Of a DNA stretch of 64,000 nt, positions 37,907-51,433 are shown piece by piece; within the stretch, counting starts at the first letter, position 1, and each line of letters begins with the position of its first letter. A model generated the notes under the pieces. It was not told where the DNA came from and did not search any database. It was given only the letters and a program-made list of their open reading frames with translations. Both the position numbers and the translations under genes were made by a program. The stretch lies in assembly GCA_963754875.1 (NCBI GenBank), contig CAVWHO010000020.1, positions 128,001-192,000 of the forward strand. The letters run 5' to 3'. Origin of the DNA: Nitrospirota bacterium. Its GTDB lineage: Bacteria > Nitrospirota > UBA9217.

Positions 37907-38847
37907 ACCTTTAGGGTCAGGTCCTTTGTTATGGTATTAGCCCCTCATCCTCACAATGTTGCTCACTGTTGAGGTGTGGAGCCCCAGGTGTCGGGCGATT
38001 TCGCTCTGCCGATATCCATGCTTCTCAACAGCCTCGATCATCTTTCTGTCCCGCTTTCGTTTGTCCCCAAGTATACTCTCTTGGAATATTTTCTCAAGCA
38101 GCGGCCGATTCGCGTAGCGCTGACTCCTCGGTATCTCAGGAACATGCTTGTGTTTCTCCAGGTGATCTACGAGGCTGTCTACGAAATCATCTTCGCCCAG
38201 AATGATCTGCCCTTTGACGTCCGTCCAGATCGGCTTTGCCCCGATCCCCCATTTGACGAACTGGCGGTATTCTTTCTCGGCCTTGGCTCTCTTCCCGCTG
38301 AATTGCCCGAGGATCCAGTCCGTAGTGAGACAGGGGTGAGGCGTTTCTTTGCCTGCGGTTGCACGGTAACTGCTCCATTTCCACCGTTCAGGGCGTTCTA
38401 TCATCCGTGCCCGGACAGGATTTAATACAACGTATCGGCAGACTTCGAGAAGGTAGCTGTCTTTCTGGATAAGAATTCCTTTAAACCTGCCTTGGAAGAG
38501 GTGCCCCGTTCGTTGATGCCGATTGTTAAATAACTGCGTGTAAACGCCATTTAACTGTCTCATTCCAAGCGAGAGGTTCCCGTCTGGGGTTTCGATGAGC
38601 AGATGGTAGTGATTGTCCATGAGGCAGTAGGCATGGCACAGCCAGTTATAGCGCTTGCAGACGTGCTGAAGGGTGCGGAGAAAAGTTTCGCGGTCGGGGT
38701 CATCTTTGAAGACGGGCTTCTTTTCGTTGCCGCGAGTGGTAACGTGATACACGGCGCCGGGATATTCGATGCGAAGGGGTCGAGTCATGATGCGAACGTA
38801 GCATAGCCAATATAAAATGTCAACACAAAAGACCTGACCCTATAGGT
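37907..38847 (-). mobile_element. RAYT-like Y1 transposase unit 1 with 23-bp terminal inverted repeats
   Basis: acctttagggtcaggtcctttgt (37907-37929) vs acaaaagacctgaccctataggt (38825-38847), 2 mismatches. Confidence 0.75.
37937..38788 (-). CDS. REP-associated-type tyrosine (HUH/Y1) transposase with C-terminal HTH
   Basis: YHVTTRGN, LMDNHYHLL (HUH), HLFQGRF, YVVLNPVRA, WSSY. Confidence 0.9.
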   Translation of the reverse strand: MTRPLRIEYPGAVYHVTTRGNEKKPVFKDDPDRETFLRTLQHVCKRYNWLCHAYCLMDNHYHLLIETPDGNLSLGMRQLNGVYTQLFNNRHQRTGHLFQGRFKGILIQKDSYLLEVCRYVVLNPVRARMIERPERWKWSSYRATAGKETPHPCLTTDWILGQFSGKRAKAEKEYRQFVKWGIGAKPIWTDVKGQIILGEDDFVDSLVDHLEKHKHVPEIPRSQRYANRPLLEKIFQESILGDKRKRDRKMIEAVEKHGYRQSEIARHLGLHTSTVSNIVRMRG

Positions 38848-38959
38848 CCTTTTTCGCCATACGCCTCCCGTGGGTGAGGGGTTTTGATGGTTCACAGCGT
38901 CCCACACGAACCGCAGGTTGGAATCATCGTTCTGTTCTACTTCGATCAATGGAAAAAGC

Positions 38960-38989
38960 TTGACATGTTGTTACCCTTTAGGTTACAAT
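38960..38989 (+). promoter_or_regulatory. higBA promoter with overlapping operator palindrome
   Basis: TTGACA-18 nt-TACAAT; TGTTACC-cttta-GGTTACA imperfect inverted repeat. Confidence 0.65.
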
Positions 38990-38992
38990 TTA

Positions 38993-39274
38993 ATGGTGAT
39001 CGCTTCCTTTGCTCATAAAGGGCTTGAACGCTTCTACCGCACCGGAAACGTTTCAGGCATCCAGGCGATTCACGCTGCTAAACTGCGGTTAATTCTAAGC
39101 CTGCTTGACGCCGCACAAACCGTCGAGGGTATGAGGCTGCCGGCGTTAAAACTGCACAAACTGAAAGGGACGCGGAACGATACATGGGCCGTGACGGTTC
39201 AGGCAAACTGGCGGGTCACGTTCCGTTTTGAAAATGGCAATGCCCACGTTGTAAATTACGAAGATTATCATTAA
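38993..39274 (+). CDS. higB: HigB (RelE/ParE-family) toxin
   Basis: [39 protein letters not shown]. Confidence 0.9.
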
Positions 39275-39284
39275 GGAGAATCTC

Positions 39285-39575
39285 ATGGCTACAATGCATA
39301 ACCCGGCCCATCCGGGAGAAATAATAAAAGGTCTCTGTTTGGAGCCGAAAGACATGTCCGTCGCCGACGCGGCAGAGCGGCTCGGTGTTTCGCGAAAAAC
39401 ATTGTATAAGATTCTCAATGGAAAAGGCGCCGTTACGCCTGAAATGGCCCTCCGGCTTGAATTGGTCTTTGGTTCCACTGCACAAACGTGGCTCAATATG
39501 CAGACCACCTACGACTTGTGGCGGCTTAAAGACAAACGTAAGGCGCTGAAGGCCGCCTTGCGACGAGCGGCGTAG
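39285..39575 (+). CDS. higA: HigA antitoxin
   Basis: [30 protein letters not shown]. Confidence 0.9.
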
Positions 39576-40040: not shown

Positions 40041-40338
40041 CCTGAAGCGCGCCACAAATGATTCTGGTCAATTTGGCAGTTACCTTAAAAAAGCAATTGC
40101 AATTAATAAACCGTAGATGCTGTAGAGAAAAGTCCAGAGTGACATAACAGTAAAAACAGCAATCTCACTGGCTATTTTTGACTTTGATGCTACTGTAAGG
40201 GCAGACATGTGTATTCTGGTGAATTCAGGCAGGCATTCGGTTTCGTTTCGGGCACGCATTCCGATTCAATTCGGGCACTCTCCAACGGGATAACCGATTG
40301 CTGGGTTAAAGCTACTATCTCATAGGGATTTTGACTTG

Positions 40339-41079
40339 TCAACGATTGATCTTTGATTTGCTCTTTCTCATTGATTCTCCTTTCAGGTCTATTTTGTAGG
40401 CGTTATGCACCAGACGGTCCATGATAGCGTCAGCCAAGGTCGGGTCGGCCAGGATATCATGCCAGTGCTTAACCGGCATTTGGGTAGTTATGAGGGTCGA
40501 CCGGCGATCATAACGGTCCTCGATGATTTCCAGAAGATCTCTTTGCTGTTCCGTCGTGAGCGGAGCAAGTCCGAAGTCGTCGAGGACAAGCAGGTCTGCC
40601 TTGAGAAGTGACTTCATCAGTTTCCGATACCGTCCGTCGTGATGCGATAGGGCCAGATCTTCAAGAAGCCTCGGCAGCCTCTGATACACGACGGCATGAC
40701 CATCACGGCAGGCTTTGTGGGACAGGGCGCAGGCAAGATAGCTCTTTCCCACGCCGGTCGGGCCGATGATAAGCAGATTGTGATGCTCGATAATCCACTG
40801 GTTCGACGCAAGCGACAGAATGAGCGATTTGTCCAGCCCTCGGGGCTGACGGAAGTCGATGTCTTCGATAGATGCTGAGATTCTCAGTTTTGCAGCTCGT
40901 AAGCGCGTAACAAGCCGTCTGTTCTCTCGTTCTGTCAGTTCTCGGTCAATAAGGAGCCCAAGCCGCTCCTCAAAGCTTAGTGAAGTCGCTTTTTGATTCT
41001 GCAGTTGTTCACGCAGGGCTTTTGCCATGCCAAAAAGACGGAGTTGTTCGATCTTGTCGAGTGTGGGATGCGCTAACAT
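40339..41079 (-). CDS. istB: IS21 helper ATPase IstB
   Basis: GPTGVGKS Walker A, LLVLDDFG Walker B, DRLVHNA. Confidence 0.95.
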   Translation of the reverse strand: MLAHPTLDKIEQLRLFGMAKALREQLQNQKATSLSFEERLGLLIDRELTERENRRLVTRLRAAKLRISASIEDIDFRQPRGLDKSLILSLASNQWIIEHHNLLIIGPTGVGKSYLACALSHKACRDGHAVVYQRLPRLLEDLALSHHDGRYRKLMKSLLKADLLVLDDFGLAPLTTEQQRDLLEIIEDRYDRRSTLITTQMPVKHWHDILADPTLADAIMDRLVHNAYKIDLKGESMRKSKSKINR

Positions 41080-41097
41080 AATAGTCTCCTTTTGCAG

Positions 41098-42639
41098 TTA
41101 GTTATAGTATTCGCTGCCACGGATGTTGCTGTGAGTGATCGCCTGTGATGCGGCTTTTGGCTCTGGTAACGGTTTTTTGTCTAAATTTGTTTCAAGGATG
41201 GACTTGACGCTTCCGAAACTGATGCCCCCGATGGCGAGTGCTCGCTTGCAGGCAGCCTCGACGCGTTCTTTGCCAAACTTCTTGGAAAGAGTGATGATCC
41301 CCATACAGGAACGAAAGCCTTGTTGTGGGTGAAGCTTCTTTGCGAGAATGGCCGTAACCAGCTCTGCCGTTGATTTGCCGGTTTCCGATGCCCAGCGTAT
41401 CAGGCGCTCTGGGGTCCAGTCAGCATAGTCCCGATGGGACTTCGGCATGTGCTCGGCAAGTGTCGTATGTCTTCCCTTGGCATAGGACCGGATATGTGAG
41501 GCGATGCGTTTGTTGTGAAAGAAGACTTCTACAATCGATTCCGTTAGCCGTACGTCCAGGTATTCATTGCGGAGTTGGTAGGGTACGCTGTAATAGTGGT
41601 CATTGACTTCGACGTGGTAATCGATGCCGGAACGTTTTTTTATCTTCCATTCTGCGTACTCGAAGGCCACAGCAGGCAGCGGTTGTAATGCAGGCTTATC
41701 GATCTCCAGAAAACGGCTCATACGGCTGCCGGAGAGCTTCTTGAAGGGCCGGTTATTGAGTCTATCCAGCAGTTCCCGGATAGCGGCATTGAGTTCTGCG
41801 AGGCTGAAGAAGGTACGGTTCCTGAGGGCTGCCAGGATCCAACGCTGCACCAGAAGGACTCCGGCTTCAACTTTCGCTTTGTCTTTAGGCTTCCTGACGC
41901 GGGCAGGAATGACCGCAGCACCGTAATGAACTGCAAGCTCTTGATAGGTGCGATTGACGCCTGGCTCATAGCGACAGACCTTGGTGATGCCGGAGAGAAG
42001 ATTATCAGGGATCAGGATCTCGGGCACACCGTCGATGAACTTAAGGGTCCGGACATGGGAACCGATCCAGTCTGGCAGACCCTGCGTAAACGTTGCTTCG
42101 GCATATGTAAAGTTGCTGGCGCCTAGGACGGCGACGAAGATCTGACAGTTGTGTACCTCTCCGGTGGATTTGTCGATTACCGAGACTGTTTGGCCACAGT
42201 AATCAACAAACAGCTTTTCTCCTGCAAGATGAACCTGTCGCATGGAGATATCGAGCTTTTTTGCATAGGCGCGATAGAGGTCACAAAAATGTGCGTACTG
42301 ATATCCTTCAGGATATTGCGCTTTGTACTCGTCCCACAGGAGCATCAGGGTAACACTTTTACGCGCAAGCTCGCGGTGAACATCCTCCCATACAGGGAGC
42401 GGACGTGGAGATGTGGAGACAATGACCGGCGGGTAGAGAAGATGCTCGAGGGCGGTATCGTCCAGGTCTGCCGGCAGGGGCCATGATAGCCCGGCCTGTC
42501 TGGCTCGTTTCGTATACTCGTCAACGGTGCTTCTGGCTATTCCACAGCTTTTGGATATAGCGCGGCGGTCTAGGCCGCAGGACCATTTGAGGCGTAAAAC
42601 TTCTTTAATTGTTCGCACGGGTATTCTTTCTCTCGTCAT
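41098..42639 (-). CDS. istA: IS21 DDE transposase IstA
   Basis: GEKLFVDYCG, IPDNL, KPKDKAKVE, YSVPY. Confidence 0.95.
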   Translation of the reverse strand: MTRERIPVRTIKEVLRLKWSCGLDRRAISKSCGIARSTVDEYTKRARQAGLSWPLPADLDDTALEHLLYPPVIVSTSPRPLPVWEDVHRELARKSVTLMLLWDEYKAQYPEGYQYAHFCDLYRAYAKKLDISMRQVHLAGEKLFVDYCGQTVSVIDKSTGEVHNCQIFVAVLGASNFTYAEATFTQGLPDWIGSHVRTLKFIDGVPEILIPDNLLSGITKVCRYEPGVNRTYQELAVHYGAAVIPARVRKPKDKAKVEAGVLLVQRWILAALRNRTFFSLAELNAAIRELLDRLNNRPFKKLSGSRMSRFLEIDKPALQPLPAVAFEYAEWKIKKRSGIDYHVEVNDHYYSVPYQLRNEYLDVRLTESIVEVFFHNKRIASHIRSYAKGRHTTLAEHMPKSHRDYADWTPERLIRWASETGKSTAELVTAILAKKLHPQQGFRSCMGIITLSKKFGKERVEAACKRALAIGGISFGSVKSILETNLDKKPLPEPKAASQAITHSNIRGSEYYN

Positions 42640-43224
42640 CCAGCTCTCCTTAGAAGCGAATTTTAAGGAGCAGGATATACGAATTTGTAGAATTTACCCA
42701 GCGTCGTTTAATGCGTTAGAGGGTGCCTGAATTGGAGCGGAACACCGGCCCGAATTGCAGTGGAATGGGTGCCTGAATTGGAGCAGAACAGGTGCCTGAA
42801 TTGCAGTGGAATGGCTGCCTGAATTGGAGCAGAATACTCAGCAGACAAACTTAAATTGATAGAAATAAACATCGTTAATATTGTAGATAGATCAAAACAC
42901 AGATAATAATTATGCTGATCGGATCGAGCGACTGGCGTATTAACCAATGATGTTAAAAAATGATATTGTCACTATCGAATAAAGAAAAGGAATTAGCGAA
43001 TGCAGTAGGTATCGTCTTCGGAGGAGTTTAATGTCCGGTTTATCCAGGATTAACAAGCTCAATGAATTGGAGGTCATCCCTTTTGATTTCAGATAATACC
43101 TTGCTAAACATTCTCTATTTAAAAGAAATCAATTGAAGGACGCCAAGAGTTATCTAAACTAACATGATCCCCAAGCATCTTTCATCCTCACTTGTCAACC
43201 AATGTGTTCTTGCCTGTGAACCAA

Positions 43225-44835: not shown

Positions 44836-44886
44836 AGCCAACGACGAGTTGAGCCCCGCGCCGCAGAGCGCGGGACTCGGAACAAC
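44836..44886 (-). other. Partial attC (L''-R' part) abutting RAYT-like unit 2
   Basis: Minus strand gttgttccgagtcccgcg-ctctgcgg-cgcggggctcaactcgtc GTTGGCT; the R'' box is displaced. Confidence 0.65.
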
Positions 44887-44897
44887 TTAGAAAAAAA

Positions 44898-45835
44898 CTT
44901 AGGGTCAGGTCCATACTGTTTACCTTTTATAGTGTCCGCACAGAATTCTGCTCACATATGTGGAGTGTACGCCGAGGTGATCAGCAATTGTACGCTGAGT
45001 GTATCCGTACTTCTCAACAGCCTCGGCAATTTTCCTGTCCCGTTTGCTTTTGTCGTCCAGTATACTCTGACTGAATATTTTATTAAGTGTTGGCCTGTTA
45101 GCGTAGCGTTGGCTCTTGGGGATTTCAGGAATATCTTTTTGCCTTCTGAGATGATCGGCAAGGCTGTCAACAAAATCATCTTCGCCTAGAAGGACTTGGC
45201 CCTTAACATCAGTCCAGATCGTTTTCTTGCCGATCCCCCATTTCACAAACTGGCGGTATTCTTTCTCTGCCTTGCCTCTTGTTCGGCTGAATTGTCCGAG
45301 TATCCAATCTGTGGTAAGGCACGGATGGGCCGTTTCTTTCCCCCCTGTGGCCCGGTAGCTTGACCATCTCCAGTCTTCGGGTTTTTCTACCATCCTGGCT
45401 CGGACTGGATTCAGCACCACATAGCGGCAGACTTCAAGAAGGTGTGTGTCTTTTTGGATGATGATGGCCTTGTACCTGCCCTGGAAAAGGTGTCCGGTTT
45501 TGTTGTAGCGCTTGTTCCGTGCCTGAGTATAAACGCCGTTTAATTGCCTCATGCCGAGGGAAAGATTACCGTCGGGAGTTTCTATCATGAGGTGGTAGTG
45601 ATTGTCCATGAGGCAGTAAGCGTGACAGAGCCAGTGATAGCGTTTGATGACGAAGGCAAGGATTTTGAGAAATGTCTCCCGGTCCTGGTCGTCTTTGAAT
45701 ACGGCTTTTTTATCGTTGCCCCGATTGGTGATGTGGTACACCGCGCCGGGGTATTCTATGCGTAATGGACGAGTCATAAAGGTGAGTTTAGCAGAAGTTT
45801 AAAGAAAAATCCAACAGTATGGACCTGACCCTAAG
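44898..45835 (-). mobile_element. RAYT-like Y1 transposase unit 2 with perfect 23-bp terminal inverted repeats
   Basis: cttagggtcaggtccatactgtt (44898-44920) is the exact reverse complement of aacagtatggacctgaccctaag (45813-45835). Confidence 0.8.
44920..45777 (-). CDS. REP-associated-type tyrosine (HUH/Y1) transposase, paralog of 37937-38788
   Basis: Same motifs (NHYH, YVVLNPVRA, WSSY); clearly similar but diverged from copy 1. Confidence 0.9.
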   Translation of the reverse strand: MTRPLRIEYPGAVYHITNRGNDKKAVFKDDQDRETFLKILAFVIKRYHWLCHAYCLMDNHYHLMIETPDGNLSLGMRQLNGVYTQARNKRYNKTGHLFQGRYKAIIIQKDTHLLEVCRYVVLNPVRARMVEKPEDWRWSSYRATGGKETAHPCLTTDWILGQFSRTRGKAEKEYRQFVKWGIGKKTIWTDVKGQVLLGEDDFVDSLADHLRRQKDIPEIPKSQRYANRPTLNKIFSQSILDDKSKRDRKIAEAVEKYGYTQRTIADHLGVHSTYVSRILCGHYKR

Positions 45836-45839
45836 ATGT

Positions 45840-46577
45840 TGGGACTTTCTCTACGGCAATTCAGGAGCTGTGTTGATCGACCGGTTCGGCTGCAATCCGT
45901 ACCGAATCATCGAGACCGGGTACGACACATTCGCTGCATCCATGAAACAGGCGATTCCCCGTATTCGGCGGGATACGATCACCCGGCTCTGGCAGGATTC
46001 TGAAAGCTCGATTCTGAATGAGCTGCCATCAAGCTATCGCGATGTTCTGGAAGACCAGTTCCAGGACCTGATCGCTCAGTTTCGGGACAGAGAGCATCGG
46101 AAAGAACAGATCGTGGAGCAGATGACGATTATCTTCCGAAGGCTTCGCGATGACGACCCCAGAATCCCCCCGCCGACCGCCGGGGTCATCTCGGAAAAGA
46201 ACCTTGCGCTGCTTATCGCCGAGACCGGGCCGATGGCTGATTTCCGCAATTGGCGGCAGTTGATGCGGTATGCCGGTCTCAACATCCGGATGCGTCAGAG
46301 TGGAAAGTATCAAGGCAAAAACAAAATCTCCAAGAAAGGCAGCCCGCTGCTCCGAAAGGTTTTGAACCATATCGTGCTGCCGCTGGTGCGAAAAGGCTAC
46401 CTCTACGGAGATTACTATCACAAGAAGCGAGAAACGGAAAAGATGGCGGGGACGAAGGCCATGACCATTGTGTCGCGCCACTTTCTACGTAAGTTCCACG
46501 GCTGGTACAAATCAGGTGCTGCATTTGATGAAAAACGGTATTTTGCCTGTGAGGCGGAGTTTTTGAAAGCGGCCTAA
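45840..46577 (+). pseudogene. IS110/IS1111-family recombinase, N-terminal RuvC-like (DEDD) half missing
   Basis: LIAETG..FRNWRQLMRYAGL..RQSGKYQGKNKISKKGSPLLR (C-terminal Tnp domain with SG motif); 5' end abuts the RAYT inverted repeat. Confidence 0.8.
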
Positions 46578-46619
46578 AAATGAACCAACGAACAAAGTAA
46601 TACGACTACTCCGGTGGAC

Positions 46620-46781
46620 CCTGGTCCCGAGATGACCGCTTGCGCCTTGTAATCTCTCTCGAGAGAATTATCCTGTCGACATTCCGTCACTCGGGATCAG
46701 GCGTTCCCAACATGGCCTATAAAGTATGGGTGTCCTGCAAAAGCAAGGACCGAACCCAGGTATGCTTGCCAGTTGCGGAAC
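46620..46781 (+). ncRNA. Putative bridge/seek RNA of the IS1111-type element
   Basis: Two consecutive hairpins, each with a large internal loop (46620-46701; 46703-46781), in the non-coding end downstream of the recombinase. Confidence 0.65.
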
Positions 46782-46889
46782 ATTTATCGCCAGAGACTAA
46801 GGAGAAATTATCAAAGATCAAAAGATCGAAGGAGATCTCTGTCTCTTTTTCTTGACTATTTCCGCCTAAAGGTAGGCGCAGGTTAGTTT

Positions 46890-47381
46890 TCAATCTGTAT
46901 TTGCATCTTCGTCGTCTTTAGCCTTGTGCTTAATTTTGCCTGGCATTACCCAGCCGAAAATGAAGAATTCGATTGCCATCCGAATTTTGTCGAAAAGTGA
47001 ATAACCTTTAAAAGTGTCTTCGATCGGAACGCTCGTCTTCTCGATATAATCAGACAGAAGCTCTTTGGCCTTTTCGTATTGGTCGTCTTGAACCTGTATC
47101 ATCTTTGCATTATAAAGACCAATATGGGGCCCCACTTCCAGAGAGCCAAAATTATCATTCCTCACAAAATAGCTGATTTCCTCAGAATCGAGGATGCTTC
47201 TTATTAAACTCAACTCAGTTTCGTTTTTTGGGGAATACAGGTTGACGAAATTAACATATTCTGGCGCGGATGGTGCCTCTTCTCTGCGCAGTGTCTCCTC
47301 CTCGTGAATCAAAGGCACATCACAGTCCGGGCAAGTAAGAAGCATCCATTTATATTTTTTCTTGCACCTGGGGCAAAACAT
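46890..47381 (-). CDS. DUF2007 putative signal-transducing protein with N-terminal Zn ribbon (cassette)
   Basis: MFCPRC..CPDC; LIRSILDSEEISYFV; stop followed directly by R'' AACTAAC (46882-46888). Confidence 0.8.
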   Translation of the reverse strand: MFCPRCKKKYKWMLLTCPDCDVPLIHEEETLRREEAPSAPEYVNFVNLYSPKNETELSLIRSILDSEEISYFVRNDNFGSLEVGPHIGLYNAKMIQVQDDQYEKAKELLSDYIEKTSVPIEDTFKGYSLFDKIRMAIEFFIFGWVMPGKIKHKAKDDEDANTD

Positions 47382-47394
47382 AATAACCTTTCAA

Positions 47395-47455
47395 AACTAA
47401 CGATCGCATCACGCGCCGCCATATGGGCGCGTCGCTGTGGACGCGATTGGTGTAC
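47395..47455 (-). other. attC site with degenerate R'' box
   Basis: Minus strand tacaccaatcgcgtccacagcgacgcgcc-catat-ggcggcgcgtgatgcgatc GTTAGTT. Confidence 0.65.
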
Positions 47456-47466
47456 CTTATATGTTC

Positions 47467-48678
47467 TAGTGTAGTGTCTCTCAATTAACTGGTGTTATGC
47501 CATGACTTGTGATAGAATGCTGTTCATGGCACGACACGCTTTAATTATAGACCTTACGGCGTCAGATCGACAAGAACTGGAGCAATGGGTACAAGCTCAT
47601 CGCACCCCGCAACAAGTCGCTCAACGATGTCGAATTATTCTAGCAGCAGCGAGTGGCCAACAAGACAAGGCCATCGCAAAGCGAATTCAAATCAATTATA
47701 AAACGGCCGCATTATGGAGGCAGCGGTTCTGTAGCGAAGGTCCGGACTGCCTTTGGGAAGTTGCGGCAGGTCGCGGACGTAAACCGGAGTTAACGACAAC
47801 CAAAATTAATAAAATAATTAGATGCCACTCTGCAATCAAGGCCTGCTGGCGCGACCCACTGGAGTTGCCGAACAATGGCTGAAAAGCACGGCGTCAGCAA
47901 AGCAACGATCAATAGAATATGGCAGAGCCATAACATTAAACCGCACAGAACTAAGAGCTTCAAGTTGTCCCGCGACCCACGGTTTTTGGAGAAGCTTACC
48001 GATGTAGTCGGTCTTTATCTGAATCCTCCAGCAAAAGCATTAGTGCTCTGCGTGGATGAGAAAAGCCAGATTCAAGCGCTGGATCGCACACAACCTGGGT
48101 TGCCTTTGAAAAAAGGGCGTTGTGGAACAATGACCCATGATTATAAGCGCAACGGTACCACGACGCTATTTGCGGCGCTCGAATTGGCACAAGGTAAAGT
48201 CATTGGTCAGTGTTACGCGCGGCATCGCCATCAGGAGTTTCTCAAGTTCTTGAAGCAACTGGACGCTGAGTTCCCGGTCGAAAAGCAATTGCACCTGGTG
48301 ATGGATAACTATGGAACCCATAAACATCCCAATGTCCAGAAATGGTTATCACGTCATCCACGCTTTGTGACGCACTTCGTTCCGACCAGTTCAAGTTGGT
48401 TGAATCTTGTCGAGCGTTGGTTCGGAGAACTGACGGGAAAACGATTACGTCGTGGTGTCTTTGTCAGCGTGGACGCGCTCAAGAGCGCGATCGAAGAGTA
48501 TTTGGCTACTTGGAATAAAGACCCAAAACCGTTTGTATGGACCGCAACCGTCGAATCGATTGTTAAGAAACTTGGACGCTGCAAGCAGACATTGGAGAAA
48601 ATTCAGCCAGGCTGCACGTTACCTCGCTCTCGCAAGAAAAAGGCTGATAACACCAGTCGTTTGTGAGACACTACACTA
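47467..48678 (+). mobile_element. IS630-family element; transposase 47517-48666 with a frameshift near 47820
   Basis: TIRs tagtgtagtgtctc / gagacactacacta inside CTAG flanks; [37 protein letters not shown]. Confidence 0.92.
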
Positions 48679-48692
48679 GCTTATAAATAGAA

Positions 48693-49056: not shown

Positions 49057-49114
49057 GTATAACGCGCGCGTGAGGAGCGTGGTTTTCGCGACTCACTCGA
49101 CGCGCTCGTTATGT
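49057..49114 (-). other. attC site
   Basis: Minus strand ACATAAC gagcgcgtcgagtgagtcgcgaaaaccacgctcctcacgcgcgc GTTATAC. Confidence 0.82.
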
Positions 49115-51072: not shown

Positions 51073-51267
51073 CTACGAGGGTTGCGAAGGATTTGAGAAG
51101 GGGCCTAAGTCCAGAGGGCTCACGATTTTCGAGAGGTTCTTTTTGCTCACGTGGAGATAAATGGTGGTCGTTCTCACCGACGCATGGCCGAGCAGAAGCT
51201 GAATATAGTGCAGATCAGCTCCCGACTCCAGCAGGTGTGTGGCGAAGCTGTGGCGGCTATTCCGCAT
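51073..51267 (-). pseudogene. C-terminal stub of the tyrosine recombinase paired with the IS91 transposase
   Basis: [42 protein letters not shown]. Confidence 0.8.
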
Positions 51268-51433
51268 GCGGAATAGCCGCCATTCATTTGCCACCCACCT
51301 TTTGCAGGCCGGCTATGACCTCCGCACGATCCAGGAACTGCTCGGGCACGCCGATATCCGGACGACGATGATCTACACCCACTGCGTGCCGAGCAAAACA
51401 TTGAAAGAGATGAAGATCCCGTTGGATTTCTAG
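51266..51433 (+). pseudogene. intI: C-terminal stub of integron integrase
   Basis: [40 protein letters not shown] matches the IntI-type GYDIRT.QELLGH.DV.TTMIYTH tail; oriented away from the cassette array. Confidence 0.75.

Follow-up and report, generated by a model that had tools for sequence, protein, structure and literature searches.

A truncated IS110-family element in a decayed integron

The window, as we call the whole stretch of 64,000 nucleotides that was analysed, carries the 3' remnant of an IS110-family recombinase gene, a non-coding region downstream of it and, in the opposite direction, a cassette gene whose attC site is interrupted (Table 1). The open reading frame of the remnant, with its stop codon at 46577, encodes the C-terminal 243 aa; the first 182 codons, the RuvC/DEDD domain and the left end of the element are missing, and the catalytic-serine motif QSG is kept. 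The best relative, the full-length protein P0003, is 93% identical to the remnant, and related contigs continue into recombinase sequence to the left of the break at 45841-45842. An attC half at approximately 44843-44885, left of the Y1 element, might have been the lost left flank but was not accepted as such, as it retains its own L'' start and by eye fits the second guide of the target loop poorly. Because both the RuvC domain and the left end are missing, the window copy is a relic unable to move by itself, and its RNA could act only in trans. The sequence-only reading had called for a full-length copy with its empty target: intact relatives were found, as were empty sites at one related locus (L003, see below), but blastn and tblastn found no other copy, and an end-motif search no full-length one, in the genome's own assembly (90% complete), nor was an intact partner recombinase found there.

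Table 1. Features of the remnant element and its insertion site, in window coordinates.
Feature	Position	Strand	Remark
Y1 (REP-associated tyrosine transposase-like) element, 28-nt terminal inverted repeats	44893-45840	-	Occupies the expected place of the IS110 left half; abuts the break
IS110-family recombinase 3' remnant, about residues 183-425 of 425	45842-46577	+	PF02371, E 1.4e-14
Predicted two-hairpin bridge RNA; both hairpins hold an internal loop with guides	46611-46786	+	Fold; consensus structure of relatives; span from model R1
Target loop (hairpin 1), predicted first guide TTGCGCCT	46640-46647	+	Same sense as the cassette strand of spacer and L'' up to the core T; 7/8 match here
Target loop, predicted second guide TGTCG, core A 46679, handshake CA 46680-46681	46674-46681	+	Guide tracks the left flank in relatives
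Donor loop (hairpin 2), predicted first guide AAAGTATG	46721-46728	+	Complementary to left end CATACT, absent from the window copy
Donor loop, predicted second guide AGGT, core A 46762, handshake TG 46763-46764	46758-46764	+	Guide follows right-end variants; handshake tracks the target
TTGACT, -35 half of the predicted junction promoter	46852-46857	+	17-18 nt from left-end CATACT after joining in 55/59 loci
Right end GCCTAAAGGT, 5-6 nt imperfect inverted repeat, shared core A at 46874	46864-46874	+	
Interrupted attC left arm: R'' AACTAAC, spacer CTGCG, first three bases of L''	46874-46888	-	Same layout in relatives
Cassette gene, DUF2007 domain, owner of the interrupted attC	46890-47381	-	Opposite direction to the element

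The architecture of attC sites (R''-spacer-L''...L'-R') and the role of their extrahelical base are well established. The setting of the window is a decayed integron with many inserted elements. The other attC sites that had been cited for this DNA were located at 49110 and 34427 and, by eye, at about 47400-47455, and a C-terminal fragment of an integron integrase lies at 51239-51433 (best match TIGR02249, E 3.5e-20, below the cutoff). An attC scan of the DNA returned a single site under strict settings and many false sites under loose ones.

Several neighbouring elements were observed. The Y1 element of Table 1 and a second copy at 37907-38847 carry REP-associated tyrosine transposase-like genes with a C-terminal extension (NF047646, above cutoff), as do G000 C20 (near 374121-374957) and C6 (82-925); these genes are flanked by terminal inverted repeats of about 28 nt with a AGGGTCAGGTC core, and both window copies abut apparent attC right halves. 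An IS630-family element with 33-nt inverted repeats (47466-48679) adjoins the attC at about 47400-47455, and 23-nt tandem repeats (42721-42835 and 40222-40278) mark both ends of an IS21-like element with two genes (40339-42639). Two short adjacent open reading frames within the cassette array (38918-39575) presumably resemble a HigB/HigA toxin-antitoxin pair.

A predicted two-hairpin RNA downstream of the recombinase

The 311 nt that follow the stop codon fold into two long hairpins on the + strand (z -4.52; none of 100 shuffles was as good), in agreement with the two-loop RNA first proposed here from the letters alone. The - strand also folds well (z -3.83), so that folding alone does not fix the strand. 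The strings quoted in that proposal lie where it had placed them, among them the outer stem of hairpin 1 (46620-46636/46686-46701), the loop strand CCTGTCGA (46672-46679), hairpin 2 (46703-46781) and the TTGACT hexamer. In 20 chosen loci, a consensus two-hairpin structure showed double changes in 12 of its 29 pairs, a result equalled in 0 of 500 shuffles of the alignment from which the structure itself was derived. The span given in Table 1 comes from the RNA model R1, which was built with the window sequence included; an Rfam search of the region gave no match at E 1.

Each hairpin contains an internal loop whose two strands can be read as guides. In the target loop, the segment TGCGCCT (46641-46647) is, as had been claimed, the exact reverse complement of AGGCGCA in the flank (46874-46880). 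A lone match of 7 nt is weak, since by an arithmetic estimate chance alone would produce one within the 311 nt, both strands counted, with a probability of about 0.04; it carries weight here because guides and flanks covary across the family. The strands of hairpin 2 had been likened to the element end, which proved right for AGGTA, a match to the right end, and wrong for GCCTATAAAGTA, which is not a right-end copy and whose AGTATG is complementary to the lost left end CATACT. As the left flank of the window copy is lost, the second guide was compared with left flanks in relatives only; at L003, the second guide is identical to that of the window and matches the left flank at 5 of 5 positions. 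The target-loop ACA, comprising core and handshake, is present in 60 of 69 loci, and the donor-loop handshake TG of the window matches its flank at one of two bases.

Relatives of the remnant

A profile search of 1.84 billion representatives led to a block of proteins of 420-445 aa, and 690 candidates yielded 344 relatives of the remnant. Intact relatives have 425 aa and combine PF01548 and PF02371, that is, a RuvC-like DEDD domain and a Tnp domain with the catalytic SG; D21, E73, D116, D119 and S334 are invariant across 46 distant proteins. They score 107-117 bits against NF033542, under its cutoff of 140. The best fold matches of the predicted structure (pLDDT 77.7) are IS621 (E 6.6e-12) and ISCro4. 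No relatives of the element were found in the viral contigs searched.

For the comparisons that follow, 83 loci were examined, comprising the best 80 of 196 confirmed metagenome matches together with L001, L083 and, as L084, the window itself; L002 proved to be a short match of no significance and is left out. A first hairpin could be parsed in 69 loci, with a right flank of at least 12 nt in 51 and a left flank of at least 8 nt in 56. The remaining loci were cut by a contig end, interrupted or missed by the patterns (e.g. L031, L032), and two right ends were placed by hand.

Guides and flanks change together

The first guide of the target loop (guide 1) matched its own right flank at a mean of 5.28 of 8 positions versus 3.71 after permutation (46 distinct pairs from 51 loci), and the second (guide 2) matched its left flank at 3.93 of 5 versus 2.33 (44 distinct pairs, 56 loci). 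The donor-loop handshake, the two bases after GGTA in hairpin 2, matched the first two target bases at 1.04 of 2 versus 0.54 (28 pairs, 49 loci). In each case none of 20000 permutations reached the observed value, and two cross controls were null (z -0.5). Kinship was controlled by pairing neighbours in the recombinase tree along disjoint paths and swapping their targets: in these tree-independent pairs the own target fitted better than the swapped one 15:2 for guide 1 (5 ties), 17:2 for guide 2 (3 ties) and 13:0 for the handshake (1 tie). The signals of the handshake and of guide 1 are not independent of each other, and GG occurs in many loci regardless of the flank. Loops that fail to covary with insertion flanks had been named beforehand as evidence against a guide; covariation is what was found, and this behaviour in the relatives supports the proposal of a natural attC-programmed two-loop bridge RNA next to a truncated recombinase.

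In the donor loop, the guide variants GAAA, GAGA, AAGA and GGGA follow the right ends in 6 of 6 loci, and one CGGTA end retains AGGTA; the putative match of this loop to both element ends holds, but rests on few variant ends. These data bear on a different division of labour, in which hairpin 1 selects the target, the protein reads the element ends at the inverted repeats and hairpin 2 is structural, with no donor guide. Such an arrangement would suit the IS1111 elements, whose main co-purifying RNA is a target-matching species of 82-96 nt (PMC11187229), as well as the small variation of the donor ends, which leaves the donor-guide match on few changes, and the fixed mismatch at the seventh base of the donor left-end guide. 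However, the matching hairpin 2 variants at all six altered right ends, the handshake bases of hairpin 2 that track the target and an inverted repeat of just 5-6 nt all argue against it, and we regard it as improbable.

The matches of guide 1 are imperfect, with a mean of 5.3 of 8. Where R'' stands 6-7 nt from the core, as it does in 11 of 48 loci, the match counted from the core drops to 1.5-3.1, so that a bulge or a shifted register is needed. At L021, L023, L024, L034, L052, L070, L075 and L076, where only 6-7 nt separate R'' from the core, anchoring guide 1 at its 5' end improves the fit, which suggests a bulged guide base or attC sites with 4-nt spacers.

Correspondence between loop and flank might also arise in the reverse direction, if the flank were copied into the RNA region after insertion and the loops merely recorded the site, the protein being targeted by the attC hairpin or by bound integrase. 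The insertion does adjoin a structural landmark, the extrahelical base, and mismatch tolerance is high. However, within the pairs L007/L008 and L014/L015 the target loops are identical, yet the sites and the mismatches differ; the strands matched by the two guides are opposite ones, in flanks 1.7 kb apart; relatives of the same layout with another RNA scaffold insert at sites other than attC; and guide-directed targeting has been demonstrated for the IS110 family (PMC11208160, PMC11187229). We therefore consider this explanation very improbable and retain the reading of the loops as guides.

The insertion site in attC

In 48 of 51 loci the GTT of R'', read on the element strand, is found 6-9 nt away from the joint, and the other 3 right flanks show no R''. 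The joint base is T in all 48 distinct right flanks, and both of its neighbours vary and differ from the donor. On the cassette strand, 18 of 31 cases have the end of an open reading frame no more than 45 nt away, versus 2 of 31 in the control. When both flanks were rejoined, which was possible for 37 loci, many gave complete attC hairpins in which the joint falls after the third base of L'' and before the extrahelical base (clear examples are L005, L010, L016, L042, L043, L063, L067 and L076), and several did not fold as attC (e.g. L007, L024, L029, L066, L073). Insertion is at base 3 of L'', a T that immediately precedes the extrahelical base, and the element runs antisense to the cassette. 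Nothing in the genome matches the 13-nt predicted target perfectly; the many matches with 1-2 mismatches are mostly outside attC sites.

Distant relatives are also present in the phylum of the host, in which 48 of 401 genomes gave a match. Among eight multi-copy groups of these, a long 3' region is clear in six, short in G131 and ambiguous in G159, and by eye the flanks are not attC-like; model R1 matched none of 28 distant loci (L100-L127). Because these distant relatives show neither the R1 scaffold nor attC-like flanks, attC targeting seems to be a trait of the clade sharing more than about 50% identity. The distant long-IS110 relatives at L128-L147 (G013, G343, G095, G155, G173, G239) have a non-coding 3' region, a TTGAC close to the right end and RNA scaffolds of other kinds; the G013 copies terminate in a ribosome-binding-like GAGGAGG just upstream of host genes.

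Element ends, joint and predicted junction promoter

The family has conserved ends, A-CATACTATTAGG on the left and TTGAC-N-CCTAAAGGT-A on the right. The left ends measure 91-138 nt and the right ends 264-487 nt, leaving a long non-coding region downstream of the gene, and the terminal inverted repeat CCTAA/TTAGG is imperfect and spans 5-6 nt. These short repeats (46864-46869 in the window) resemble attC core boxes, and on the cassette strand the left end (ACCTAAT-AGTA-TGT) looks like an R'' followed by a 4-nt spacer and the beginning of L'', AAT replacing AAC.

At L003, contigs from 4 of 4 sequencing runs proceed from the left flank to the core and then into GGCGCAGGTT-like sequence (consensus agreement 0.66-0.77); these are empty sites with a single A at the joint. 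At L048 the right end is joined to the left end over a single A, one case among the 83 loci, which may be a captured circle junction or a donor-donor or tandem insertion; there (L048:1913-1950) the joined left-end sequence diverges after about 24 nt. No circle joint was found in the contigs of the sequencing runs aligned to the loci. Because the empty sites and the L048 joint each hold a single A, and the core T has variable neighbours, donor and target share one base only.

In the intact left ends (L001, L003-L083) a conserved hairpin covers the ribosome-binding site in 62 of 67 cases; by prediction, it would damp translation from outside or junction transcripts. An internal TAnAAT (TACAAT, TATAAT or TAGAAT) occurs in 57 of 67 left ends versus 16% in shuffles, with no obvious -35.

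Comparison with known RNA-guided recombinases

The layout found here is that of IS621, in which two loops hold four guides and two handshake pairs (PMC11208158). The likeness to IS621 and ISCro4/IS622 extends to the geometry of the RNA, with its two internal loops, its four guides and its pair of handshake dinucleotides (PMC11208160, PMC11208158, PMC13626964, bioRxiv 2025.05.14.653916; PDB 8wt6, 9t56), to the DEDD and serine residues, to the fold and, by prediction, to a junction promoter. In contrast to these systems, the RNA region follows the gene and, with respect to the guide-sense strand, the element is turned round, the protein is about 100 aa longer and 16-19% identical, the target is attC, and one core base is shared in place of their CT/GT dinucleotide core. 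The dinucleotide core is a feature of the two model systems, IS621 and IS622, and is not shown to define the IS110 family.

Programming of guides for attC has precedent. ISKpn4, ISPst6 and ISPa25 target attC with downstream seekRNAs, which for ISKpn4 and ISPst6 have been shown experimentally to carry attC-programmed guides, and in IS1111 seekRNAs the guide against the top strand of the element comes first, the order seen here (PMC11187229). The sequence-only reading had invoked this IS1111-attC group, and one may ask whether the element is a diverged member of it. With ISKpn4, ISPst6, ISPa21 and ISPa25 (PMC11187229, PMC13604230, PMC3001079) it shares a downstream guide RNA and an insertion antisense to the cassettes near the 5' end of attC. 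It departs from them in the length and motif of the protein, its place in the tree, the short inverted repeat and the base at which it inserts. IS1111 proteins have 330-350 aa with GL-P----S(t)G, and a long IS110 subgroup has 395-455 aa, in some cases with a 3' non-coding region (PMC11187229); the present protein has 425 aa with GLNIRMRQSG (GLNI----SG), without the proline. Its repeat of 5-6 nt, imperfect, compares with about 12 nt in the IS1111-attC group and with sub-terminal repeats of 7-17 bp in IS1111.

ISPa21 was compared through the copy in pME-1a, identified from PMC7232449. P0003 gave no significant alignment with ISPa21 (E 0.045) and scored far better against long Bacillota-type IS110 proteins, and model R1 had no match in the ISPa21 locus, in keeping with a different RNA scaffold. 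In a tree of 29 proteins (12 of them references; unrooted and without IS110, IS621 and ISEc21) the core family (15 rows, 100/100) stands apart from five IS1111 proteins including ISPa21 (100/100), on an unrelated branch. ISKpn4 inserts after the first base of L'' (PMC13604230, Table 1), as does ISPa21 at its junctions in pME-1a, a crossover at base 1|2; the present family inserts one base further into L'', at base 3, allowing for a shared T in both. By our reading the ISPa21 junctions also have a single shared T, and the one-base core may not be special to the present family. Membership of the IS1111-attC group is already largely refuted by these differences, and we give it almost no credence.

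The nearest named proteins belong to the long (395-455 aa) IS110 subgroup (ISBth13, ISSep2 and ISChy2-like), which has the same length and shares 20-25% identity; its distant loci have RNA without an R1 match and flanks that are not attC-like, and we have seen no attC target reported for elements of this subgroup. When six exact family motifs were sought in the ISfinder protein list of PMC11187229 (supplement 6), five were absent and AGLNI occurred only in ISChy2.

A probable bridge RNA programmed for integron attC sites

Taken together, loop 1 matches both sides of the insertion site and loop 2 both element ends, and their letters change together across relatives, as far as comparison of sequences can tell. 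We consider it highly probable that the region is the conserved non-coding tail of a truncated IS110-family element, likely encoding a two-loop bridge RNA that would guide an intact recombinase of 425 aa to join the circular element to an integron attC. By analogy with IS621 (PMC11208160, PMC11208158, PMC13626964), the element would excise as a circle whose joined ends would form a promoter (TTGACT, 17-18 nt, CATACT), and the bridge RNA would be made from the 3' end of the transcript of this junction promoter. A recombinase tetramer would then open both DNAs, the serine would cut and the strands would swap with the help of two handshake pairs, in an exchange relying on serine and DEDD residues. 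The tree suggests that this long-IS110 lineage would have reached attC independently of the IS1111-attC group, and it is likely that a separate lineage of known RNA-guided recombinases converged on integrons.

A bolder proposal sees in the family a second, independently evolved integron parasite, which would take the invariant T in the L'' of attC for its one-base core and rebuild the site arm with its left end (ACCTAAT-AGTA-TGT on the cassette strand), leaving a site that the integrase could still use, thereby moving the element within a cassette. We hold this to be rather unlikely, though worth stating.

The bridge recombinase mechanism has already been published, as have attC guides for ISKpn4/ISPst6 (PMC11187229), and the known underlying mechanism limits the surprise. 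We found no paper on an attC-targeting long-IS110 lineage in full-text searches; it could still be described in subscription papers, among them the two that first reported IS1111-attC elements, or in the supplements of PMC11208160 and of bioRxiv 2026.10.21.760802, the latter with 86 unnamed RNA models.

The relatives of the window copy form a natural library of retargeted guides, with 46 distinct guide/target pairs, tolerated mismatches, bulges and co-evolving handshake bases. The one-base core, if it proved true in a test, would loosen the dinucleotide-core constraint that limits bridge editing. Furthermore, the data argue for a true donor loop in an element with a downstream RNA, where the bridge and seek models differ. 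For the family, our results point to RNA-guided recombinases that converged on the integron attC from a protein branch unrelated to the IS1111-attC group, inserting one base apart from it.
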